Source: Escherichia phage KEP2. From it: DNA of 64,000 nt. Both the position numbers and the translations under genes were made by a program. Location: the sequence record PP047752; one strand, written 5' to 3'. The notes under the pieces are model-generated. The model was not told the origin of the DNA and did no database searches. It saw only the letters and a program-made list of their open reading frames with translations. Positions 31,446-41,867 of the stretch are shown one piece after another (position 1 is the stretch's first letter; every line of letters begins with the position of its first letter).

Positions 31446-31643
31446 ATGCCTACAATCCTAGCAATTCTTCTAAAAAATCTAGGTAGCTTCTTCTGGAAAC
31501 TCATTTTATCCCTTCTAAGTGAATACATGATTGAGAAAGTGTTCTTTAAGCTTGCAAGATACCTTGCGAGTAAGACAGACACACCTATTGATGATGAGTT
31601 CGTAGATAACTTAGAAAAAGCTTTTAAGGGGGAGAATAAATGA
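31446..31643 (+). CDS. small hydrophobic protein (holin-like?)
   Basis: 65 aa, hydrophobic N-terminus. Confidence 0.35.
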   Translation: MPTILAILLKNLGSFFWKLILSLLSEYMIEKVFFKLARYLASKTDTPIDDEFVDNLEKAFKGENK

Positions 31644-32011
31644 AGTGGCTAGAGGAAGCTTTTAAAAATAATATTGGTGCAATTGTAGTTGGTATTTTTA
31701 GTGTTATTGGGATGTATACCACCATGCAAGTTTCGGATGGTAAGCAAGAAGTGTCTGTCACAACAAAGTTACAGCAGCTAGATAATTATATCAAATCTAA
31801 TTACTCAGCTATTCGTGATTTACAGTCTGACATGAGACTGATTCAGCTAGGGATGGAGAACCAGAAAGTTCAGTTAGAGAATGTTAAGGGTGAGAACGCA
31901 AAACTTACTAAAACTCTGGATAAATTCTCTGACAGTGTGAACAATCTGGCTCAATCAGTATCAGCCTTGCAAGCTATTACTGAAAAGAACACAAAGAATA
32001 CTGAAAAATAA
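31640..32011 (+). CDS. membrane-anchored coiled-coil protein
   Basis: 123 aa, TM segment (IGAIVVGIFSVIGMY) then heptad-rich region. Confidence 0.4.
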   Translation: MKWLEEAFKNNIGAIVVGIFSVIGMYTTMQVSDGKQEVSVTTKLQQLDNYIKSNYSAIRDLQSDMRLIQLGMENQKVQLENVKGENAKLTKTLDKFSDSVNNLAQSVSALQAITEKNTKNTEK

Positions 32012-32017
32012 AATTTA

Positions 32018-32046
32018 AGGCTCCTTTTTACGGGAGCCTTTTTTGT
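32018..32046. terminator. bidirectional rho-independent terminator between convergent modules
   Basis: AGGCTCC…GGAGCCT hairpin flanked by T-run on plus strand and A-run upstream. Confidence 0.65.
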
Positions 32047-32047
32047 T

Positions 32048-32947
32048 TTACTTGCCTACTGACAGAGGTGCTTCAATCTTACCTGCATGTTGGTAGTTAT
32101 TAATCCCACCAATAAAATCACTTGCTGTAAGATGTTTTAAGTCACTTAAAGTGTTAAGTGGGATACCAATCTCAAAAGTTGGTGCATGGAACTCTTCATT
32201 GTTCATCAGTTCATAAACCTGCTTCATATGGTTCTGATAAATCTGAGTATCCCCAAAGACACCTATCAAGTACCGTGGAGCGTATCCAGTCATCTTGCAA
32301 AGAACTTCCAGAATAAAACCATAAGAGGCAATATTAAACGGAAGTCCTAAAAAGGTGTCTACAGAACGCTGATACCATTGTAAGTCAACTTCACCCTCAT
32401 TAGTGATATAAATCTGAAACAGAACATGACAAGGTGCTAAAGCCATTGAGTTTGCTGCAATATCTGCTGCATTCCAAGCATTAACCAGCATGTAACGGTC
32501 TGTGATATCACCCTTCATCTTTGTTACTAATGTCTCTAGTTGGTCTACAACACAACCATTATGACCTTCAAAGTTTCTCCACTGAACCCCATAGATTCTC
32601 CCACCTGCATCATCTAACCAATCTTGTTCAGAAGAATAATTAGAGCTTAACCAACGTTTAAAATCATCTGACCAGATTGTCCAACGTTCTCCGTCATTTT
32701 CACCCCAAGTACGGTAACGAAGTTCACCAAGCTTATTCTCTCCATTCAGGAACCATAAAGCTTCCCCAATAACTTGCCGTGTAAACACCTGTTTAGATGT
32801 TAAAAGTGGGAAACCAGTTCGCATATCAAAACGAAACTGAGGTGGAGCAAATGCAGAGATAACATCTCCAGTTCGTGTAGTACGCAGTTCACCAACTGAT
32901 AAAACATGGTTCAGAATATTTTTGTAACTTGTATCTGCTTGTGACAT
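32048..32947 (-). CDS. thyA: thymidylate synthase
   Basis: APCHVLFQIY active-site Cys region and DTFLGLPFNIASY motif. Confidence 0.9.
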   Translation of the reverse strand: MSQADTSYKNILNHVLSVGELRTTRTGDVISAFAPPQFRFDMRTGFPLLTSKQVFTRQVIGEALWFLNGENKLGELRYRTWGENDGERWTIWSDDFKRWLSSNYSSEQDWLDDAGGRIYGVQWRNFEGHNGCVVDQLETLVTKMKGDITDRYMLVNAWNAADIAANSMALAPCHVLFQIYITNEGEVDLQWYQRSVDTFLGLPFNIASYGFILEVLCKMTGYAPRYLIGVFGDTQIYQNHMKQVYELMNNEEFHAPTFEIGIPLNTLSDLKHLTASDFIGGINNYQHAGKIEAPLSVGK

Positions 32948-32948
32948 A

Positions 32949-33494
32949 TCAAAAGTGCCCTTTTACTTGTGGTGTATAGATATCAAAAGTTGCTTTTCCA
33001 TCTGCTGATGGTCTTGACTGAATCTTAGCGAAAATTTTACGGTCATGCAACTTGTCAAAGAAGTTCTCAAAAGGTAGATACACAGTTGCCTCTTCAGTCA
33101 CTTCATGGAAAACTGTATGAAACACTACATCAGCATACGGTAAAGCACTGACAAGAATACCTGCACCACCAATTACGAAAACATCTTCTTCAATATTACT
33201 ATCAAGATACTTTAAAAATGCTCCAAAAGAGTCTTGATGAGCTTTAGCAAACATAACATCATCTTTACTAAAATCTATACCGTAATAAGGCACGGAGTTT
33301 GTTAAGATAAGGTTTTCACGTTCAGGTAAAGGGTTACTTCCCAGAGTCTTGAAAGTCTCATTACCCATTACTACTAAGTTGTCTTTAGTGAGTCTCTTAA
33401 ACTCTTGCATATCCTCTTTATGTCGAGGCCACGGCATACCAGTTGGAGTACCAAACTCCCCATTTTCACCACTTGCAAAGATTAATTTAATCAT
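32949..33494 (-). CDS. folA: dihydrofolate reductase
   Basis: N-terminal IFA…GMPW…MGNETF DHFR signature; adjacent to thyA. Confidence 0.85.
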   Translation of the reverse strand: MIKLIFASGENGEFGTPTGMPWPRHKEDMQEFKRLTKDNLVVMGNETFKTLGSNPLPERENLILTNSVPYYGIDFSKDDVMFAKAHQDSFGAFLKYLDSNIEEDVFVIGGAGILVSALPYADVVFHTVFHEVTEEATVYLPFENFFDKLHDRKIFAKIQSRPSADGKATFDIYTPQVKGHF

Positions 33495-33751
33495 TTTGTA
33501 AATCCTTTCTTAATGAACCAGTTGATAACATTCTTCACAGCTTTATTGCTATGGTAGATTAAGTGTGGTGCAGGTTGGTATGAACCATAGGCCCAGAATG
33601 ATAGATGCTCACCACAACCAACACATGTAGTACTTTCTTCAGCTATATGACCATTAACAATCACATGAACTTCACCTTGTAAGTCTGTACACCCACAATG
33701 TGGACAACGTATAGGTGTTCCATCAGACTCATAGCAGTGTTCAATTTTCAT
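33491..33751 (-). CDS. zinc-ribbon protein
   Basis: CPHCGC…CVGCG cysteine pairs. Confidence 0.45.
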   Translation of the reverse strand: MKIEHCYESDGTPIRCPHCGCTDLQGEVHVIVNGHIAEESTTCVGCGEHLSFWAYGSYQPAPHLIYHSNKAVKNVINWFIKKGFTK

Positions 33752-34267
33752 TTATTTAACCTCAAAAACTGGTTCAAGAACCAATATAAAGTCTACACAG
33801 TCATCTTCTTCATCCAGAATACCATCAAAGTTCTTAGGAACGAAGTCGAAGAGGCTCATCACAAAGCAGTCAGAAGTAACCCTGATAGTTCCTCCCATAT
33901 TCTCTACAGTCAACACTGTACGGCTTTCTTTTACCTCTCTCAGAAGATTACTCACAAAGTCATCTAAGAAGTACTTCATCAGTGACTTAAAACCTTTAGG
34001 GTAATCTGTACCAGAGTATGTTTCAATCTGAGGTACAAGCTTAACATTTATACTAGTCTTTGTTAAGAATGTGTTAGAGAACATACTATCAGGTAACTTA
34101 CAAACAATCTTTCCAGTACCTTCATGTTCAATCTCAACAAAACCAGCTTCATCGCCACATGTGACTATTTTAAAAGATGCTTCATTCTCATGCTGTGAAG
34201 CCATAAACTTTTTAAGCATTTCCTTAAGGAAATCTGCATGAGCATCTTGTAAGTAGATATCAATCAT
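33752..34267 (-). CDS. hypothetical protein
   Basis: 171-aa ORF. Confidence 0.45.
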   Translation of the reverse strand: MIDIYLQDAHADFLKEMLKKFMASQHENEASFKIVTCGDEAGFVEIEHEGTGKIVCKLPDSMFSNTFLTKTSINVKLVPQIETYSGTDYPKGFKSLMKYFLDDFVSNLLREVKESRTVLTVENMGGTIRVTSDCFVMSLFDFVPKNFDGILDEEDDCVDFILVLEPVFEVK

Positions 34268-34280
34268 AGTTAATCACCTA

Positions 34281-34640
34281 TTATGGGAACAGACACTTGA
34301 TGTCATCGTTTTTAAAAACAAAACTTGTGTAGTTGTGACCGTCAACATCCAGCCAAACAGCCTGAACATCTACACCATCAAGATTTTGGTAAAGCTCTTT
34401 GATAAAGTGGTCTTTCACAATCTGGCTACTGGTTGTTTCCAGCTTAATGTTTGAGATTGCTGAACCTACAGCCATATAACCCATGACACGTTTCTTCTCA
34501 GTATGCTTAATCTTACCATCTTTGTAAGCCATAATGAGATTGGAAAGAATCTTCACACCATAATACTTTTCAAGGTGAGTCGGTACACCATAAAAGCCTA
34601 ATGCGAAGTTTTCAGAGTGGATAATATTTTCACGTTTCAT
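34281..34640 (-). CDS. hypothetical protein
   Basis: 119-aa ORF. Confidence 0.45.
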   Translation of the reverse strand: MKRENIIHSENFALGFYGVPTHLEKYYGVKILSNLIMAYKDGKIKHTEKKRVMGYMAVGSAISNIKLETTSSQIVKDHFIKELYQNLDGVDVQAVWLDVDGHNYTSFVFKNDDIKCLFP

Positions 34641-34641
34641 A

Positions 34642-34971
34642 TTAATCTGCCAACCTTAAATTAAAATTAACACCAAATTTTTCACATACTTCCAACATAT
34701 ACTCAAGGGAGACATTACCAGTGAGGTGGATTATGTTGGATACACGAGCCTGAGAGATACCACAAATTTTAGCAACTTGCTCTTGAGAAAGACCTCTGGA
34801 TTTAATCTCTCTCTTAAAACGATGTGCAACAAAATCTCTCATTTCGTCTACATCCATTGGACAAATATAACTCTCCATTTCAGCCTCTCTGTCAGCCTCC
34901 CAATCATCTTGTGGAGCATAAGGGTCAAAAACCTCATTCATCTTTCTTCTTCCGTTTGCGTGAAGTATCAA
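34642..34971 (-). CDS. helix-turn-helix protein (XRE-like)
   Basis: LSQEQVAKICGISQARVSNI HTH-like segment. Confidence 0.45.
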   Translation of the reverse strand: MILHANGRRKMNEVFDPYAPQDDWEADREAEMESYICPMDVDEMRDFVAHRFKREIKSRGLSQEQVAKICGISQARVSNIIHLTGNVSLEYMLEVCEKFGVNFNLRLAD

Positions 34972-35146
34972 TCAATGAATCTATGTTTGTAGCCCTAACC
35001 TTTTCACGTTCATCGTTAAGATAATCATCAAGAGCCTTTTCAATCTGTGAATCATCTTGACAGATAACTGTAAAGACTGTAAAGCCGTCTGTATCATCAA
35101 TTATCTTACCATAACCGCTTCTGGGATGTAACTTTTTAAGAGCCAT
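34934..35146 (-). CDS. hypothetical protein
   Basis: 70-aa ORF. Confidence 0.35.
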   Translation of the reverse strand: MALKKLHPRSGYGKIIDDTDGFTVFTVICQDDSQIEKALDDYLNDEREKVRATNIDSLIDTSRKRKKKDE

Positions 35147-35147
35147 A

Positions 35148-35531
35148 TCAAATACCTGTGCAGCTTCTGTTTTCTAAGAAATACTCAACACCATACATAG
35201 CTTTTTGCATCAAGTCTTCTTTAAACTGAATACGATGATTGAGCATAGCCTGTACATCAATATCATCAGGGTGCTTCTCTTTAATATTTGCAGATTGTAG
35301 GAAATACTCTGCAAGAACACGATACTGATAGTCAGTTACCTTATCAGTCATCTCTGTTAAAGACTCTTCAGAGATTGGTTTAAGTAGTTCACCATTAGCT
35401 AGAGCAACACCTTTTACAATCTGGCAAGTGTCTTCTGGAACACCTGATAAGTCCACATTGGGAAGTTCTGTTGCATTAACTGGTAAATTCATTGCCATAA
35501 CCATTGCAGCAGCTAATAAAATCTTTTTCAT
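35148..35531 (-). CDS. secreted/periplasmic protein with signal peptide
   Basis: N-terminus MKKILLAAAMVMAMNLPVNA. Confidence 0.5.
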   Translation of the reverse strand: MKKILLAAAMVMAMNLPVNATELPNVDLSGVPEDTCQIVKGVALANGELLKPISEESLTEMTDKVTDYQYRVLAEYFLQSANIKEKHPDDIDVQAMLNHRIQFKEDLMQKAMYGVEYFLENRSCTGI

Positions 35532-35963
35532 AATGACCTCAAAGTTATATTAAATTTTGTATTACATTGAGTATAAAAATAAGCTATAACACCTGACTTG
35601 TCAACAGATTTTATAGCTTATTTGGCAGATTTTTTATAAGGCTACTGCCATCCTTCCATACCAGACTACACCATGCCAGACCAGACTTCACATCACCTTA
35701 CCGTGCAATACATTACTTAAAAACCCTCTTAAAAGACTCTTAAGTGATGCTGGTGAGTACCCGTTGGTCTATACTGCTCAGTATACTCACCAAATTTTCT
35801 ATGTCAACAACTTTTATATAAAAGTACTGATAGCTATATGTGTTACAAAACAGAAGATTGTGAACAAGACACCCATTGCAAAGGATGTGTTCAAAAGCTT
35901 ACTTGTGATGTAAGACAACACAAAGATAACTAATGCAAATAGTATGATTATGCTTAGCATAGT

Positions 35964-37100
35964 TTACTCATAATCCCTAATAACGAGGCCAACAGGGAAC
36001 TGTAAAGAACCCTTACGAGTCATCTTCTGGAACTGAACAGTTAAAGGTTTCCCGATAAACTCTTCAGGATGTTCAGCAAGATACTGTTTCTTCTCGTGTG
36101 TAGTTTTCCATGAAACATCTACAAAGACGTTAGGAAGAGTCTCTACAACAAACTTGCCATGACCACGTTTGTCAGTTTTTACACCAGTCACTTTAAACTC
36201 TTCCGTGTGCATCTTCTTGTGCTTAATCAAGAAGTATGAACGGTGACAACACTCATAGAAGGAGTCTTCAGAGATTGAACGGTACATTGCACCTTCAAAC
36301 TTAGCTTCAACCCACTTATCATGAGCTTCATCAAACTCCTCCCAAGAGTTCACACGGATAGTCTGTACAGGAACCACTCTACAGGTATCACCAAGCTCAA
36401 TAATGGGTGAGTTATCAATAACTTCACGACGCTCAGGCCAAGTTTTTGAATTGTCACAGATATCATACCAGTAGAATTTAAGAAGGTGACGTTCTGGGTT
36501 GTCAGTATTCTTAATCATAGACACAATATCTTCTAAGTCCCAACCGTGAGCATAAATCTCACCATCAAAGTCTTCGACTTGTGGATGCAATTTAAGCAAC
36601 AAAAGCAAATCTGGGATTAGCTCTGCTGGTACGTTGTAAACAGTATTCTCACGAGAATAAGCCGTGAAACTAACTAAATCAGCATCTCTTGAAATTCTAC
36701 AACGGACACCATCAAGTTTCGGTTGAGCATCAGCAGGGAACTTCAGATACTTTGCATGACTAACCTTTGCAGCATCATGAGCAAGCTGCACACCTACCTT
36801 TTCAGTATTCTGTGCAGACTCTTTTGTATAAGCATAACCTTTGCGGTCAACTTGCTTTTTGTACTTAGCAGTAACTTCAAAGAGAGCTTGCTGTTCAGCA
36901 TTACGCTCATTCTTTTTACCGATGTTTTTAGGTTCTGCTGTATACTCTTCAAACATCATCTTGCCATTTTCTTTACCGTAGGTTGTAATGACTTTGTCAC
37001 CTACAGCAACGCATGACCAGACGTTAAAAGAACCATCTTTATTCTGTTTGTATAGTATTGTCATTTTATTCCTCTGAGTGATACCAAGTATTGCAAGCAT
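35964..37100 (-). CDS. ATP-dependent DNA ligase
   Basis: Adenylation motif PKLDGVRC (KxDG); 378 aa. Confidence 0.8.
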   Translation of the reverse strand: MLAILGITQRNKMTILYKQNKDGSFNVWSCVAVGDKVITTYGKENGKMMFEEYTAEPKNIGKKNERNAEQQALFEVTAKYKKQVDRKGYAYTKESAQNTEKVGVQLAHDAAKVSHAKYLKFPADAQPKLDGVRCRISRDADLVSFTAYSRENTVYNVPAELIPDLLLLLKLHPQVEDFDGEIYAHGWDLEDIVSMIKNTDNPERHLLKFYWYDICDNSKTWPERREVIDNSPIIELGDTCRVVPVQTIRVNSWEEFDEAHDKWVEAKFEGAMYRSISEDSFYECCHRSYFLIKHKKMHTEEFKVTGVKTDKRGHGKFVVETLPNVFVDVSWKTTHEKKQYLAEHPEEFIGKPLTVQFQKMTRKGSLQFPVGLVIRDYE

Positions 37101-37257
37101 TACATGCGTAAAGCTCTAAGTCATTTTTATCTGGTTTATGAAAACAGTTTGCTCCGCAGTGGCAACGAAATGGCTTTCCACCAACTGTAAGGATGAAGGA
37201 TTGAACCTTTCCATCAGGAGTTCGTACAGCATTTTTATGTTTATCTTCTTTGTTCAT
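37066..37257 (-). CDS. zinc-ribbon protein, paralog A
   Basis: FRCHCGANCFH…CNACN; paralog of 37582..37785. Confidence 0.45.
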   Translation of the reverse strand: MNKEDKHKNAVRTPDGKVQSFILTVGGKPFRCHCGANCFHKPDKNDLELYACNACNTWYHSEE

Positions 37258-37330
37258 TTTATCTCTTGCCTCACAAGCTATGCAACCTTTTGAGTAGAAG
37301 TAGTGCCAAGCACAACCATCAAAGCTCTCT

Positions 37331-37585
37331 TTAGTGATTAATTGAATTTACTAATTCCATGTGTTTTTCGTAGAAACATAAACATTTTTTATCTTGCTCA
37401 TTTATGTAGCTCTCATAAAATTCTGGTGATTCTGGTCTTTCACCAAATGAAATAACCTTTAGGTAGTACTTCCCATATGTGGAGCTATCTAACCAAGAGT
37501 CAAATAGTAATTTCTTAGTATTAGTCTTTGGAGGGATTACCAAACTTTTCTCATACAATTCCTTCATTTCTTGGGTTATCTTCAT
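37331..37585 (-). CDS. hypothetical protein
   Basis: 84-aa ORF. Confidence 0.4.
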   Translation of the reverse strand: MKITQEMKELYEKSLVIPPKTNTKKLLFDSWLDSSTYGKYYLKVISFGERPESPEFYESYINEQDKKCLCFYEKHMELVNSINH

Positions 37586-37785
37586 TGCATATCCTTAATC
37601 TTACCTAAGAACCTTACCCCACAGTTATTACACTCGTATGTGTCTAACTTTGTGTTATCAGGTTTGTGAAAACAGTTTGACCCACAACGACACCGGAATA
37701 GTTTACCATCAACACGAAGAATGAACGTCTCAAGCTCACCCTCTTCTGTAAGAACTGCGTTTTTCAATTTATCTCCTACAGTCAT
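37582..37785 (-). CDS. zinc-ribbon protein, paralog B
   Basis: FRCRCGSNCFH…CNNCG. Confidence 0.45.
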   Translation of the reverse strand: MTVGDKLKNAVLTEEGELETFILRVDGKLFRCRCGSNCFHKPDNTKLDTYECNNCGVRFLGKIKDMQ

Positions 37786-38087
37786 TTTCTTTTACCACCA
37801 ATCTCTACGTCGATAACTTGAACATCACCAGCAATATCAAACTTATGAATGATGCTTTCCACAGTATAAGTCCAACCCTCGATTCGAACCAACTCACCCT
37901 CTCGTGGGACGATTGGGTTACGTTGAGCTACGGTTGTAGTGGAGTGAACAACATCATAACAGTAGATATAGTTTACTAGGACTTCCATCGTGAAAACCTC
38001 ACTCAATAACCGTAGTATGTGATTGACCATTTTTGCCATAACTATAAGATGTTGTTGTTTGAGAGTTTGGACACCTGACAACAACAA
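37782..38087 (-). CDS. hypothetical protein
   Basis: 101-aa ORF. Confidence 0.4.
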   Translation of the reverse strand: MLLSGVQTLKQQHLIVMAKMVNHILRLLSEVFTMEVLVNYIYCYDVVHSTTTVAQRNPIVPREGELVRIEGWTYTVESIIHKFDIAGDVQVIDVEIGGKRK

Positions 38088-38235
38088 TATCTCTGCTTAT
38101 TGCATCCCCATTTAACTTATAGACTTTGCAATCTTGCATCTCTGGTGGGAGACTATAAGAAGCATTTTTGTCCTCGTAAGAGGGATTACAGCCAGATAGA
38201 AAGATAACACCAAGCACAATTACTGCTTTCCACAT
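37999..38235 (-). CDS. putative lipoprotein
   Basis: Signal peptide with lipobox MWKAVIVLGVIFLSGC; overlaps 37782..38087 in another frame so one of the two may be spurious. Confidence 0.35.
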   Translation of the reverse strand: MWKAVIVLGVIFLSGCNPSYEDKNASYSLPPEMQDCKVYKLNGDAISRDIVVVRCPNSQTTTSYSYGKNGQSHTTVIE

Positions 38236-38422
38236 AATACTCCTCCTATTTACTGTTCACGATGTTCTACTTCTCTGTACGTTCGTCGATAGTATATAAT
38301 AAGCTGTGCTAATTCGTTGCTTTTAACATCGGAGCGTAACAGTTGCCAATCAAAGCCTTTACCTACCCTACCATATAAACTAAACAACTTCACTTTGCGT
38401 TTCATTTTGGTATCCCCAATAC

Positions 38423-38650
38423 TCAGAGGTCAATACTAATACGTTCACCTTTAAGGACTCCTGTACGGTCCCTTGCAATCTTACCGTCAACAATAAGGAT
38501 ATGTGCAGACCTTAAAGATTCACTATTAAAACCTTTTAAGAACTTGCTAGGCATCACTACAATACACATCTCCTGAATCAACTCTGGAGTATAGCAGTTG
38601 TCGTGAAGTTGCTGAATAACGTCTGCAAGTGTCATTTTTGATGTCTCCAA
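38423..38650 (-). CDS. small protein, paralog pair member 1
   Basis: Shares …DGKIARDRTGVLKGERISID… motif with 38838..39047. Confidence 0.45.
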   Translation of the reverse strand: METSKMTLADVIQQLHDNCYTPELIQEMCIVVMPSKFLKGFNSESLRSAHILIVDGKIARDRTGVLKGERISIDL

Positions 38651-38841
38651 TACTCAATGTCAATAAGTTCTTGTGCAATGCTTTTCAGATTACCTTTCAA
38701 GAAAACCTTCTCAGAACCTGAAAGAGATGAATTGTCAATTAACCTGCTCATTCTCTCAAACAACTTCTGCTTACGGTTCTTGATAGTCTCATTTGAAGCA
38801 CCTTTCATCATCGCTGCATGGGTTCTTCCACGGTGACTCAT
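38632..38841 (-). CDS. small basic protein
   Basis: 69-aa ORF between the two paralogs. Confidence 0.4.
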   Translation of the reverse strand: MSHRGRTHAAMMKGASNETIKNRKQKLFERMSRLIDNSSLSGSEKVFLKGNLKSIAQELIDIEYWRHQK

Positions 38842-39047
38842 AGCAAATTCTCGATGTCTACACGTTCACCTTTTAAGTACCCTGTCTTGTCTTTTGCGAT
38901 TTTCCCTCCAGCAATAAAGATATCTGCTATACGCAGAGCTTCAGGGTTTACTCTATAACCACTGCAAATAACAATAAGCATGTCTTCAATCTCTTTTTGA
39001 GAATAACCTGCACATTGCAACTGAACTTCAATCTCTGAAAGCGTCAT
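38838..39047 (-). CDS. small protein, paralog pair member 2
   Basis: …GGKIAKDKTGYLKGERVDIE…. Confidence 0.45.
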   Translation of the reverse strand: MTLSEIEVQLQCAGYSQKEIEDMLIVICSGYRVNPEALRIADIFIAGGKIAKDKTGYLKGERVDIENLL

Positions 39048-39108
39048 GTGACCTCCTATACAAGATACAGTATAAGGTACTCTTCCATGAGCACCTTGTC
39101 AATACTAA

Positions 39109-41808
39109 TTAGTGTACTTCAAGCCAGCTTTTACCAACCTTACCAGTACCTGTTACAAGTGTTTCTTTCTTAAGACCTAAGTTCTTAGAAGCTTGTCCAT
39201 AATACCAGTCAGTAACTGCTTTCACTTCTGCCGTCATACTTTCTGGACATTCCCAGCTTGTTTCATCGTGATATGCGCAGAGCAAACGAGCACCAATAGC
39301 TGGTTTACGACCATTTAACTTCATCAAACCTTCGTCAATCATACGACGACAAGCAAGGTTAATTGCCTCATTTTGAATCTGAGCCTCTGAACCCATCAAA
39401 AGATAGTTCAACAGTTTGTGTGGAGATTTACACCACAACCAAGCTCCAGCAACCTTTACAAATCCCCCTTTAGAGATTGCAGCGGTCTTACCAAAAACCT
39501 CTTCAAGTGCCTTTTTAGTCGCTTTGTAGTCAGCTTCCAAGTCATCTAGCAACTTCTTAATTTTAGGCAAACGAATAAAGTAAGTCTGTTTAGTCAGTGC
39601 ACCTTCCTGAGTAGTTGCAGCTTTAATTGTCTTAGCAAACTTCTCATCACCTGCACCGAACAGCAGTGCATAGATACCATTCTTAGCTTTTTTACGACCC
39701 TTACTAATCTCATGGAGAAGATTCTCATCCTGAGTGGCTCGACAAGTCAAGATATCCTGCTCATCATTCAAGCTAAAGTAAATACTGTTCAGTGTGTGTG
39801 CATCAGTCCCTGAATAGACAACGTACAGGTCATTCTCAGAGTCATAGCGGAGGTACTTATCAATCTCTGGGTTGAGGTACTCATCAAAGTGTTTGCAGTA
39901 ATAGCGTCCATCTTCTTGACGAATAAACTCAATCTCTTCTTTACCTTGCGTTACCGCTTTGGTGAAGTCTTTGTCACCCATAAAGTTACAAAGGAGAACT
40001 AGCTGGGCTGAGTTCATGTCTACAGAGACAACATTAGTACCTTCTTCACAAATCCACACTGCCCTCATTGGTTCCCCATAGACAGCAGCACCAGACGGTA
40101 CGTTTACAATACCATATTGTGTCATACGTCCAGTTGAAGTACCAAATACCATTGCACCAGCACTAAGGCGACCATCTGGACGAATCTGGTTTAGCCAACC
40201 TTTTTCATCATCCTTTGAGTTCTCAATAGTTCTGCGTCTGTGCATCAAAGTATAGTACTTAGCAATCTTCTGTCCAAGCTCACCTTCAATCGTATCATAA
40301 GATGATTCAGTAAGTTTTGGTGAAGTACGGATTAAGCAAGGCTCAAGCAAATCTGTGTACTTCTTCACAGACCAGTTATGCTCGATGTACTGTACACCTT
40401 CATGTTCAACATAACTCAAACCACACCGCTCAACCATTTCCTGCCACTTAGGATGCTTTGTAATCATCTTTTTATTGTCTTTGAAACGACAAACTTTGAC
40501 AGGGCGACCGTCTGAATCTTTCTTGTAGTTCCAGTCATCTGGAATCCAACCAACTGATTTCAAGTAGTCTTTAACAACTGCTACCTGAGTCATACGAGAA
40601 ACTTCAAACTCAATTGGTGTATATGGTGCATCAATCAATCCTGTGTAGCGACTTGACTCAAGCTCAAAGTGGTTAACAACATGACTGTTATAGTACTTCA
40701 CAGTTTTAACTGTTTTTACTGGCTTCCAGTCTTTGCATTTCTTACCAATCTTTGCATTCAACTCATTGCAAATTGCACGAGCATCCTTCATTGCTACAAA
40801 ACCTTCCTTGTACTCTTCACCAGTTACAGAGTTGGTTGGTGTATAGCAATTTCTCTTTTCAATGTTAAAAATCTTTGTAGTTGGCTTACCAAATGGCTTG
40901 ATTTCATATGTCTGCATCTCACCGTTACGTACCTGCTGACGATACTTTGTCTTAGGGTACTTGGTAATTCTCTTCAGTCCATCTGCGTGACCAAATGCTT
41001 CAACATACTCATTCCAAGCTTTTGCAAACTCTTCTCCAGTGACTTTACCTTTGGTCTTGATAGTTGGTGGAAGGTGTGGTTCAACTTCTGAAGCAAGCTC
41101 ATTAGTCAGCTTGTCAAGTTCCTTTACATGGAACTCCATAAGCTCTTTATCAGCTTTCCAACCATTGATAGCCTGTTGACTCATCCAGAAAGATGTTTCT
41201 TTAGCTCGCATGTAGGTTTCATAAGTATCTATGCCACACTTCTTCAGCTTGAGATATTCATTATCCAGTGCGCGTTTAGTTTTGGCGTTAATACGGATAT
41301 CTTCCACAACACGAGTGAAGATTTCTGCATTCCACACACCCCAATGTTCAATCTCTGGTTTACGTACACCAACACGAGCACCCCATGCTGCCAAGCCATG
41401 AGCACCTTTATAACCTTTTGGAGTTGGTCTATCCATCCACTGAACACGAGACTGGATAAGAGAATCCTGAAAGAAATTACTCCACGGCTTACACTTTGGA
41501 TTATCAAAGTTCCACAAATCAGGTGCAATGTGATTGAAAACCCACCAGTCATACCCCAGACCATTATGGATGCAGAGTCGTTTTGCCTTTAACGCAAACT
41601 CAATGCCTTCACGTAAGCCACCCTTAATGTACTTGGTATACTTGTGACCGAGGATAGGTTCATCTGTAAAGACCCATACAGGCGGCTCTTCATCGTCAGA
41701 TTTATAGTCTGCGAAAGCCATTACGTGCACTTTAGTGAACTCAAGGAGTAAACCATCAGTTTCTGTATCACCAACTAAATGTAAGTTTTTAAAATCTACG
41801 TTTTCCAT
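39109..41808 (-). CDS. family-A DNA polymerase with 3'-5' exonuclease domain
   Basis: Exo motif VGDTETDGL; pol motifs KKAKNGIYALLFGAG and CAYHDE; start taken at second ATG (41808) which has GGGAG RBS; track start 41838. Confidence 0.9.
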   Translation of the reverse strand: MENVDFKNLHLVGDTETDGLLLEFTKVHVMAFADYKSDDEEPPVWVFTDEPILGHKYTKYIKGGLREGIEFALKAKRLCIHNGLGYDWWVFNHIAPDLWNFDNPKCKPWSNFFQDSLIQSRVQWMDRPTPKGYKGAHGLAAWGARVGVRKPEIEHWGVWNAEIFTRVVEDIRINAKTKRALDNEYLKLKKCGIDTYETYMRAKETSFWMSQQAINGWKADKELMEFHVKELDKLTNELASEVEPHLPPTIKTKGKVTGEEFAKAWNEYVEAFGHADGLKRITKYPKTKYRQQVRNGEMQTYEIKPFGKPTTKIFNIEKRNCYTPTNSVTGEEYKEGFVAMKDARAICNELNAKIGKKCKDWKPVKTVKTVKYYNSHVVNHFELESSRYTGLIDAPYTPIEFEVSRMTQVAVVKDYLKSVGWIPDDWNYKKDSDGRPVKVCRFKDNKKMITKHPKWQEMVERCGLSYVEHEGVQYIEHNWSVKKYTDLLEPCLIRTSPKLTESSYDTIEGELGQKIAKYYTLMHRRRTIENSKDDEKGWLNQIRPDGRLSAGAMVFGTSTGRMTQYGIVNVPSGAAVYGEPMRAVWICEEGTNVVSVDMNSAQLVLLCNFMGDKDFTKAVTQGKEEIEFIRQEDGRYYCKHFDEYLNPEIDKYLRYDSENDLYVVYSGTDAHTLNSIYFSLNDEQDILTCRATQDENLLHEISKGRKKAKNGIYALLFGAGDEKFAKTIKAATTQEGALTKQTYFIRLPKIKKLLDDLEADYKATKKALEEVFGKTAAISKGGFVKVAGAWLWCKSPHKLLNYLLMGSEAQIQNEAINLACRRMIDEGLMKLNGRKPAIGARLLCAYHDETSWECPESMTAEVKAVTDWYYGQASKNLGLKKETLVTGTGKVGKSWLEVH

Positions 41809-41867
41809 TTTTACTCCCTCTAAAATCATTAACCTCATACATTACTGCAAAAAATTATAAAAAGCAA

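Follow-up and report, generated by a model that had tools for sequence, protein, structure and literature searches.

Small genes between the DNA polymerase and folA genes of Escherichia phage KEP2 as probable accessory content of a Felixounavirus replication unit

INTRODUCTION

The closest described counterparts of the locus considered here lie in two phages of the genus Felixounavirus, the Felix O1-like myoviruses of Escherichia, Salmonella, and Shigella. In Felix O1 itself (AF320576; Whichard et al. 2010, PMC3185647), genes 96 to 80 make up one of four transcription units, and transcripts of ORF 96, the polymerase gene, are described as being detected within 5 min (PMC3185647). By reverse transcription-PCR, genes 80, 83, 84, 87-90, 93, and 96 reach their maximum at 25 min and were classed as "middle," while the maxima of genes 81 and 95 fall at 10 and 5 min, respectively (PMC3185647). 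The second phage is Bas63 (Escherichia phage JohannRWettstein, MZ501086), the Felixounavirus of the BASEL collection. The equivalent stretch of Escherichia phage KEP2 (sequence record PP047752) is the subject of this work, and in particular the cluster of small open reading frames (ORFs) at 33491-39047 of a 64,000-nt segment of that record, which was analyzed as a whole and is called the window below. The locus corresponds to Felix O1 genes 96-80 and Bas63 g47-g30, and we assign a probability of roughly 0.7 to the reading that the cluster represents the accessory small-gene content of the replication/nucleotide-metabolism transcription unit of Felixounavirus.

Phenotypes for genes of this type are available from PhageMaP, a set of barcoded Bas63 knockouts described in a preprint (PMC11482910). 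There, Bas63 g32 is called homologous to Lar ("Lar-like"). Its essentiality is lower in DH10B than in BW25113, MG1655, and S17-1, and the authors propose a role for it in the evasion of type IV restriction. Bas63 g40 is more dispensable under several defense systems, and when expressed alone it is toxic only if the Hhe helicase-nuclease defense is present, which marks it as a trigger of defense. Candidate Hhe triggers were also reported in T7, as seven unrelated genes from its DNA-metabolism cluster, which led the authors to suspect that Hhe detects an activity and not one specific protein. The validated counter-defense genes of Bas63 (g77, g79/80, g84/85, and g130) all lie outside the cluster, and the phage is reported there to be without a RecBCD inhibitor. 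It is also reported to be remarkably sensitive to several restriction-modification systems. The locus tags of MZ501086 fit the numbering of the preprint, with 65 encoding a glutaredoxin, 79/80 the NAD-synthesis enzymes, and 84/85 rIIA/rIIB. Two other preprints on the essentiality of phage genes did not cover Felixounavirus.

More distant parallels are provided by the early and middle gene arrays of T4, T5, and T7 (e.g., the T7 class II genes 1.4-2), in which small ORFs, for the most part dispensable, are likewise tightly packed among genes for ligase, polymerase, and nucleotide metabolism. Some genes of the T7 array are candidate Hhe triggers in PhageMaP, as is Bas63 g40. However, these arrays have no sequence relationship to the cluster in the window.

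RESULTS

A conserved frame filled with genuine small genes

Megablast with 33491-39047 matched 259 phage records, 208 of them at 90-95% identity and nearly all from Felixounavirus, placing the source genome in that genus, with an identity of 92-94% to more than 200 relatives; the top match, Escherichia phage vB_EcoM_DE17, is 93.8% identical over 97% coverage with an identical gene order in its annotation. The minus strand carries every gene from the polymerase (39109-41838) through thyA (32048-32947). We numbered the small minus-strand ORFs from p1 on the folA side to p17 on the polymerase side, with no p8, so that transcription proceeds from the polymerase through p17-p9, the ligase, p7, a 282-nt gap, and p6-p1 to folA and thyA. 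The unit thus opens with a 909-aa family-A DNA polymerase, which is annotated as such in relatives and is 91-99% identical to other Felixounavirus polymerases. It closes with folA (32949-33494) and, as its last gene, thyA, annotated in relatives as dihydrofolate reductase and thymidylate synthase, respectively. Spacings between the genes range from -8 to +17 nt, except for gaps of 61, 73, and 282 nt, and 4-nt ATGA overlaps link p17-p16-p15, p12-p11-p10, and the p1-folA junction.

The interval between folA and the polymerase holds 16 small ORFs and, in their midst, a 366-aa ATP-dependent DNA ligase (35964..37064); a reading of the window made earlier without database searches (the sequence-only reading) had put the number of small ORFs at 15 and passed over the ligase. 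All 16 small ORFs match a PHROG family, with E between 1e-17 and 1e-91, and for all but the helix-turn-helix (HTH) regulator that family is labeled as of "unknown function." In a comparison with orthologues from Felix O1, ASO1A, and two mooglevirus genomes, their ratios of nonsynonymous to synonymous substitution (dN/dS) are ~0-0.3 against the close relatives, similar to those of thyA, the ligase, and the polymerase. Because of the PHROG matches and these ratios, the small ORFs are to be regarded as real genes under purifying selection rather than as chance ORFs.

The ligase contains a KxDG motif in the form KLDG and scores 32.3 bits against Pfam DNA_ligase_A_M (PF01068; cut-off, 26.2), with its OB domain at 23.2 bits, under the cut-off of 28. 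It is 89-97% identical in relatives and starts 1 nt past the stop of p9, and its open frame reaches upstream to 37100, over the end of p9. Many Felixounavirus records annotate zinc-ribbon ORFs of 63-72 aa as "DNA ligase" (e.g., L001 7444-7647 and L007 8488-8679 among the fetched loci); as these ORFs are without a ligase domain, the label looks like a propagated misannotation. DNA or proteins of Felixounavirus from this region also occur in GU169904 (Staphylococcus phage SA1) and in MG065664 and MG065668 (Campylobacter phages A132 and A126), which are probably contaminated or mislabeled assemblies.

Distribution of the cluster genes among relatives

The equivalent locus was taken from ten relatives, and each protein of the window was scored against them. 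A frame of thyA, folA, ligase, and polymerase, filled with differing small genes, recurs in Felixounavirus, Mooglevirus, Kolesnikvirus, and a Yersinia phage. Six genes, namely thyA, folA, p3, the ligase, p16, and the polymerase, are present out to Kolesnikvirus, and all but folA are present also in the Yersinia phage. A second layer (p1, p2, p4, p5, p6, p12, and p13) is common to Felixounavirus and Mooglevirus, while the presence of p7, p9, p10, p11, p14, p15, and p17 varies among relatives. The product of p3 retains 36-37% identity in Kolesnikvirus and in Yersinia phage P778, and that of p16 retains 52-57% in Kolesnikvirus. By this distribution, p3 and p16 would behave as core and not as accessory genes.

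The two best described relatives illustrate the same variability on a shorter scale. Felix O1 genes 80-96 form the same unit in the same order at ~92% nucleotide identity, but there is a single hybrid zinc-ribbon gene, p10, p7, and p17 are missing, and an HNH endonuclease gene adjoins the polymerase. In Bas63 the gene order is again that of the window, with p1-p7 and p12-p16 being 91-100% identical; g32-g45 match p1-p16 one-to-one, the exceptions being the ligase, at 89%, and the hybrid g40. Unlike in the window, this g40 replaces p11-p10-p9, and an HNH homing endonuclease gene, g46, replaces p17. Indeed, the polymerase-adjacent slot of p17 is occupied by an HNH homing endonuclease in Felix O1, ASO1A, tootiki, and Bas63. 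HNH genes were located in the fetched loci at L002 8197-8700, L005 8345-8857, L007 9787-10290, and L018 15208-15735. The polymerase gene of tootiki is annotated as two pieces.

The zinc-ribbon pair and its hybrid

The sequence-only reading had drawn attention to two paralogous pairs of small proteins, the first made up of zinc-ribbon proteins: p11, of 67 aa (37582..37785, upstream), and p9, of 63 aa (37066..37257, downstream). Their paralogy is borne out, with p9 and p11 being 54% identical (E=2e-24) and both matching the profile of phrog_5768 over its full length (E=1.6e-40 for p9 and 8e-33 for p11). The members of the pairs are not adjacent, however, as the word "tandem" in that reading would imply: p9 and p11 are parted by p10 (84 aa; 37331..37585; phrog_32421), and the second pair, p15 and p17, is parted by p16, in both cases an unrelated gene.

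The two-copy state is rare. A search with p11 found 234 places in 225 phage records, which leaves about 9 records with two copies; a p11-type copy at >=80% identity is present in 9 records only, and p10 in 11. In ASO1A and tootiki, p9 is the sole zinc-ribbon copy. Felix O1 and ZX4221 have a single zinc-ribbon gene of a third kind. In a codon alignment, nearly all informative sites in its first ~107 nt agree with p11, and all of those from about nt 118 agree with p9; the change occurs inside the stretch coding for NCFHKP, which is common to p9 and p11. The same hybrid sequence is found in the Bas63 g40 protein, whose identity is 76% with p9 and 72% with p11. Such a hybrid would be the expected product of recombination between two direct repeats, in the course of which p10 would be lost. 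Synonymous divergence between the copies is high (dS of 1.4 for p15/p17 and not estimable for p9/p11), and for this reason the paralogs are best seen as old alleles and not as the outcome of a recent duplication.

Beyond Felixounavirus, the family is large. Searched against 1.84 billion representative proteins, its profile recovered 472 at E<=1e-3 and 102 at E<=1e-10. The conserved core reads G-K-x-F-R-C-x-C-G-C-N-V-F-H-K-P-D…Y-x-C-N-x-C; among 150 homologues, C32 and C52 are invariant, and C34, N37, F39, P42, N53, and C55 are conserved in at least 90%. Both p9 and p11 carry the CxC...CxxC cysteines and the F-R-C-x-C-G-x-N-x-F-H-K-P-D motif. Many homologues bear unrelated N-terminal extensions, and within the 150, fusions to Lar, Tad2-like, dATP/dGTP pyrophosphohydrolase, NUDIX, DUF2934, and RyR domains occur in one case each. 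In a Pfam scan of the same 150, no model covered the zinc-ribbon domain of the p9/p11 type.

The genomic settings of the homologues are disparate. An Aeromonas phage has one between the genes for RNA polymerase and the single-stranded DNA-binding protein, Kolesnikvirus has one near rIIB and polynucleotide kinase, and others stand beside an HTH gene and a dUTPase or in the early region of a lambdoid-type contig. In other phages, then, these genes lie within small-gene arrays with no consistent link to a ligase. The domain hidden Markov model (HMM) found no homologue among T7 genes 1.1-2.8, which include the candidate Hhe triggers.

The AlphaFold2 (AF2) models of p11 (pLDDT 87.4) and p17 (pLDDT 92.1) are of high confidence but have no significant structural neighbor; word-indexed protein searches with p11, p17, and p1 returned close relatives only; and PDB sequence searches with p11, p17, p2, p3, and the profiles of both paralog families yielded nothing significant. 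The zinc ribbons of TFIIS, Rpb9, and TFS4 are weak matches of p11, which we do not take as evidence of RNA polymerase binding. We also rejected p1 as a member of the p9/p11 family, with hhalign giving a probability of 49-67% across 23-34 columns and the HMM of the family scoring p1 at 2 bits.

The second pair

Nearest to the polymerase lie p17 (69 aa; 38838..39047, in the polymerase-adjacent slot), the basic p16 (69 aa; isoelectric point [pI], 10.3; 38632..38841; phrog_5180), and p15 (38423..38635), of which p16 is 97% identical to Bas63 g45 and p15 is 91% identical to g44. For p15, the ATG at 38635 (70 aa) is a likelier start than the TTG at 38650 (75 aa) that had given the pair its earlier limits. 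As with the first pair, the paralogy of p15 and p17 stands up: they are 43% identical (E=8e-17), and both match phrog_4230 over its full length (E=1.5e-41 and 5e-33, respectively). Here, too, the two-copy state is a minority condition. A search with p17 found 286 places in 252 records, leaving 34 records with two copies, while 187 of the 252 have the p15 type only. Felix O1 has the p15 type alone, and Mooglevirus has the p17 type alone.

The remaining small proteins

The product of p1 (86 aa; 33491..33751; phrog_2993), 98.8% identical to Bas63 g32, is a CxxC...CxxC zinc-ribbon protein that resembles the Lar (PF14354/TIGR03655) and ECs_2282 (NF047912) families in its N-terminal zinc ribbon and its size. 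It differs in having a conserved 35-residue C-terminal extension (FWAYGSY...NWFIKKGF), which falls beyond what those models match. Its scores stay under the cut-offs throughout: 24.3 bits against 37 for ECs_2282_CxxC (NF047912; E=2e-5), 18.1 against 39.6 for TIGR03655 (E=0.0025), and 13.8 against 28.6 for PF14354, and in a profile comparison with a genuine Lar-domain protein p1 was not aligned to the Lar domain. The p1 family is present in 389 phage records, including T4-like and SPO1-like phages, with those sampled all being annotated as hypothetical.

Among the other proteins singled out by the sequence-only reading, the HTH protein is p4 (99 aa; 34642..34941; phrog_1373, transcriptional regulator), a Cro/C1-type domain with an acidic N-terminus that scores 39.4 bits against Pfam HTH_3 (PF01381; gathering cut-off, 23; E=6e-10). 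The predicted lipoprotein is p13 (78 aa; 37999..38235; phrog_902), whose N-terminus, MWKAVIVLGVIFLSGC, read off the translation, begins with a charged segment and a hydrophobic run, after which comes an L-S-G-C lipobox (pattern, [LVI][ASTVI][GAS]C) at residues 13-16. The signal-peptide protein is p6 (127 aa; 35148..35531; phrog_4332), in which MKKILLAAAMVMAMNLPVNA precedes TE and cleavage is predicted at the junction of …PVNA with TE; it is 34% identical in Mooglevirus. All three attributions thus hold up. The p13 family extends to 585 phage records, among them about 295 from Vibrio phages and some from jumbo phages, and all sampled members are hypothetical.

The rest of the cluster consists of proteins with little beyond their PHROG assignment. 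On the polymerase side these are p14 (51 aa, basic; 38250..38405; phrog_2381), which is variable in presence and 94% identical to Bas63 g43, and p12 (68 aa; 37782..37988; phrog_4427), for which we take the ATG at 37988 as the start because phrog_4427 covers residues 34-101 of the long ORF. Beyond the ligase come p7 (48 aa; 35814..35960; phrog_22006), a hydrophobic protein with a grand average of hydropathy of 1.99 and probably two membrane helices, which is 98% identical to Bas63 g38 and missing from DE17, Felix O1, and ZX4221; p5 (70 aa; 34934..35146; phrog_4473), 100% identical to Bas63 g36; p3 (119 aa; 34281..34640; phrog_4116), found Ounavirinae-wide; and the acidic p2 (171 aa; pI, 4.6; 33752..34267; phrog_4422), with no sequence match in Pfam or the PDB.

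Transcription signals and the 282-nt gap

The description of the cluster in the sequence-only reading as an early region is apt only in a rough sense. The corresponding Felix O1 genes are expressed early to middle, but most of them peak at 25 min (PMC3185647). Within the 282-nt intergenic region (35532..35813), which has stable hairpins and a fold z-score of -3.6, lie the best two sigma70-like sites of the window, on the minus strand: TTGACA-16-TATACT at 35807..35780, with 11/12 consensus matches, and TTGACA-17-TATTTT at 35604..35576, with 10/12. Because promoter-like sites are overall no more numerous than in shuffled sequence, these two can be treated as leads only.

One hairpin of the gap carries a -35 box in the loop, with a T-run behind it. 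Several relatives (loci L003, L006, L007, and L009) have a two-gene cassette (441 and 588 nt) inserted in the gap, flanked by direct repeats of the intergenic DNA of the gap; its genes have no Pfam match. Together, these features suggest that the gap could be a hot spot of recombination and insertion built on promoter and stem-loop repeats. An Rfam scan of the region detected no RNA family.

Two further signals were seen at the margins of the unit. Upstream of p17 (39048-39108, minus strand) is a TTGACA...TATACT pair whose 22-nt, hairpin-forming spacer exceeds the standard sigma70 length. At the other end, a hairpin at 32017-32040 is a bidirectional terminator that separates a plus-strand holin-like gene (31640-32011) from the end of thyA, matching t79 and t80 of Felix O1.

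DISCUSSION

We favor the interpretation that the small genes at 33491-39047 are accessory content carried within a conserved replication and nucleotide-metabolism unit. Host RNA polymerase probably reads the unit from upstream of the polymerase gene, possibly aided by sigma70-type promoters inside it near 35.8 and 35.6 kb, as the consensus matches there would have it, and many of the genes are probably translationally coupled through the ATGA overlaps. Rather than components of a single machine, the small proteins would be a "toolbox" of factors directed at the host, each dispensable by itself. In this collection, the zinc-ribbon protein p1 has a Bas63 orthologue that, from the published phenotypes, matters only in some host genotypes. 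The p9 and p11 proteins belong to a widespread, unnamed zinc-ribbon family of phages, to whose Bas63 orthologue, or to an activity of it, the Hhe defense responds; that orthologue is dispensable in the published screen. Given its domain, p4 may serve as a DNA-binding regulator of the Cro/C1 type, and p6, p7, and p13 are predicted to be exported to the cell envelope.

The pairs would have their origin in divergent alleles that were set side by side, in a minority of genomes, by recombination between related phages. Recombination between the copies may then collapse a pair into a single gene; the hybrid itself is seen in Felix O1, ZX4221, and Bas63, and the direction from pair to hybrid is the likelier one in our reading. 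Recombination among co-infecting relatives would shuffle the content of the cluster in this manner, with the insertion of homing endonucleases perhaps contributing. The paralog pairs would accordingly be by-products of shuffling, that is, unstable states and not a fixed design.

Several points weigh against this interpretation. The functional evidence comes from orthologues in Bas63 and not from the phage of the window, and the PhageMaP results are those of a preprint (PMC11482910). With an identity of only 72-76% to p9 and p11, the hybrid g40 may have a trigger property that does not transfer to them. The history of allele recombination is read from distribution and from the hybrid gene instead of from a dated phylogeny, and an old duplication in place, followed by frequent loss, would give a similar pattern. 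Finally, the internal promoters are consensus matches alone.

The principal competing view, that of the sequence-only reading, is that the cluster is a dedicated anti-defense or host-takeover island, in which most of the small proteins, including both pairs, inhibit immunity or shut down host functions, with the duplications serving to widen the range of targets. Its appeal is understandable: the genes are small, variable, expressed early to middle, and cotranscribed with replication genes; most are accessory and confined to Felixounavirus and Mooglevirus; p1 has its subthreshold matches to Lar and ECs_2282; the zinc-ribbon domain is fused to Lar, Tad2-like, MazG-like, and NUDIX domains, once each among the 150 proteins; and the fitness effect of Bas63 g32 is host dependent and was attributed by its authors to restriction evasion (PMC11482910). 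Yet none of the 16 proteins reached the threshold of a curated family of known anti-defense function in Pfam, NCBIfam, or PHROGs, none of which is a dedicated anti-defense catalogue, and PADLOC returned nothing beyond generic HTH similarity. In Bas63 the validated counter-defense genes lie elsewhere, g40 activates rather than blocks a defense, and the phage is reported to be without a RecBCD inhibitor (PMC11482910); it is also described as remarkably sensitive to restriction-modification systems. The genes are under purifying selection with no sign of rapid diversification, p3 and p16 are conserved subfamily-wide, the ligase is a housekeeping enzyme, and the two-copy state that prompted the idea is a rare recombinational variant that is not fixed. 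We therefore hold the island to be improbable, if not negligibly so; what survives of it is that g32 and g40 have immunity-related phenotypes in Bas63, and what does not is its extension to the whole cluster and to the pairs.

Two other readings concern the zinc-ribbon genes foremost. If variation in these genes were driven by escape from Hhe-like sensing, then the divergent alleles, hybrids, and losses would be its products, and the two-copy state would be a snapshot of an arms race. The toxicity of Bas63 g40 only in the presence of Hhe (PMC11482910) and the occurrence of three allelic states, along with complete absence, among close relatives accord with this proposal. However, pairwise dN/dS is low, and the seven unrelated T7 candidate triggers, none of them a homologue of the zinc-ribbon domain, point to a sensed activity rather than a sensed protein, which leaves the proposal doubtful. 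We regard as similarly doubtful the broader conjecture that the p9/p11 domain is a widespread phage effector that perturbs host DNA metabolism, with the perturbation being detected by Hhe-type defenses and the alleles, hybrids, and losses recording escape from them. Less likely still is that the cluster supplies cofactors of replication and repair, the zinc-ribbon proteins aiding the ligase (e.g., in nick sensing) and p15-p17 aiding the polymerase. The close spacing of p9 and the ligase, the position of the p17-p16-p15 trio directly after the polymerase, the conservation of p16 and p3 alongside polymerase and ligase across the subfamily, and the Kolesnikvirus zinc-ribbon homologue one gene away from polynucleotide kinase would fit such roles. 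But a ligase/polymerase-cofactor role for the zinc-ribbon proteins appears unlikely because Mooglevirus has a 90% identical ligase and no zinc-ribbon gene and because the Kolesnikvirus homologue is ~33 kb from the ligase; moreover, the zinc-ribbon genes of other phages lie among unrelated small genes, and Bas63 g40 becomes more dispensable, not less, under several defense systems.

On the accessory-content interpretation, the cluster is ordinary phage "dark matter" that is present in hundreds of genomes and has already been covered by a genome-wide knockout screen; its sequences, its gene families, and part of its phenotypes are public, and it is already catalogued. What is added here is a corrected gene map that includes the ligase, a link between the genes of the window and the phenotypes of Bas63 g32 and g40, evidence for the pairs as unstable states of recombination, and the placement of the Hhe-triggering protein in a large, unnamed zinc-ribbon domain family. 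For studies of how Hhe senses infection, p9, p11, and the hybrid offer ready natural variants.

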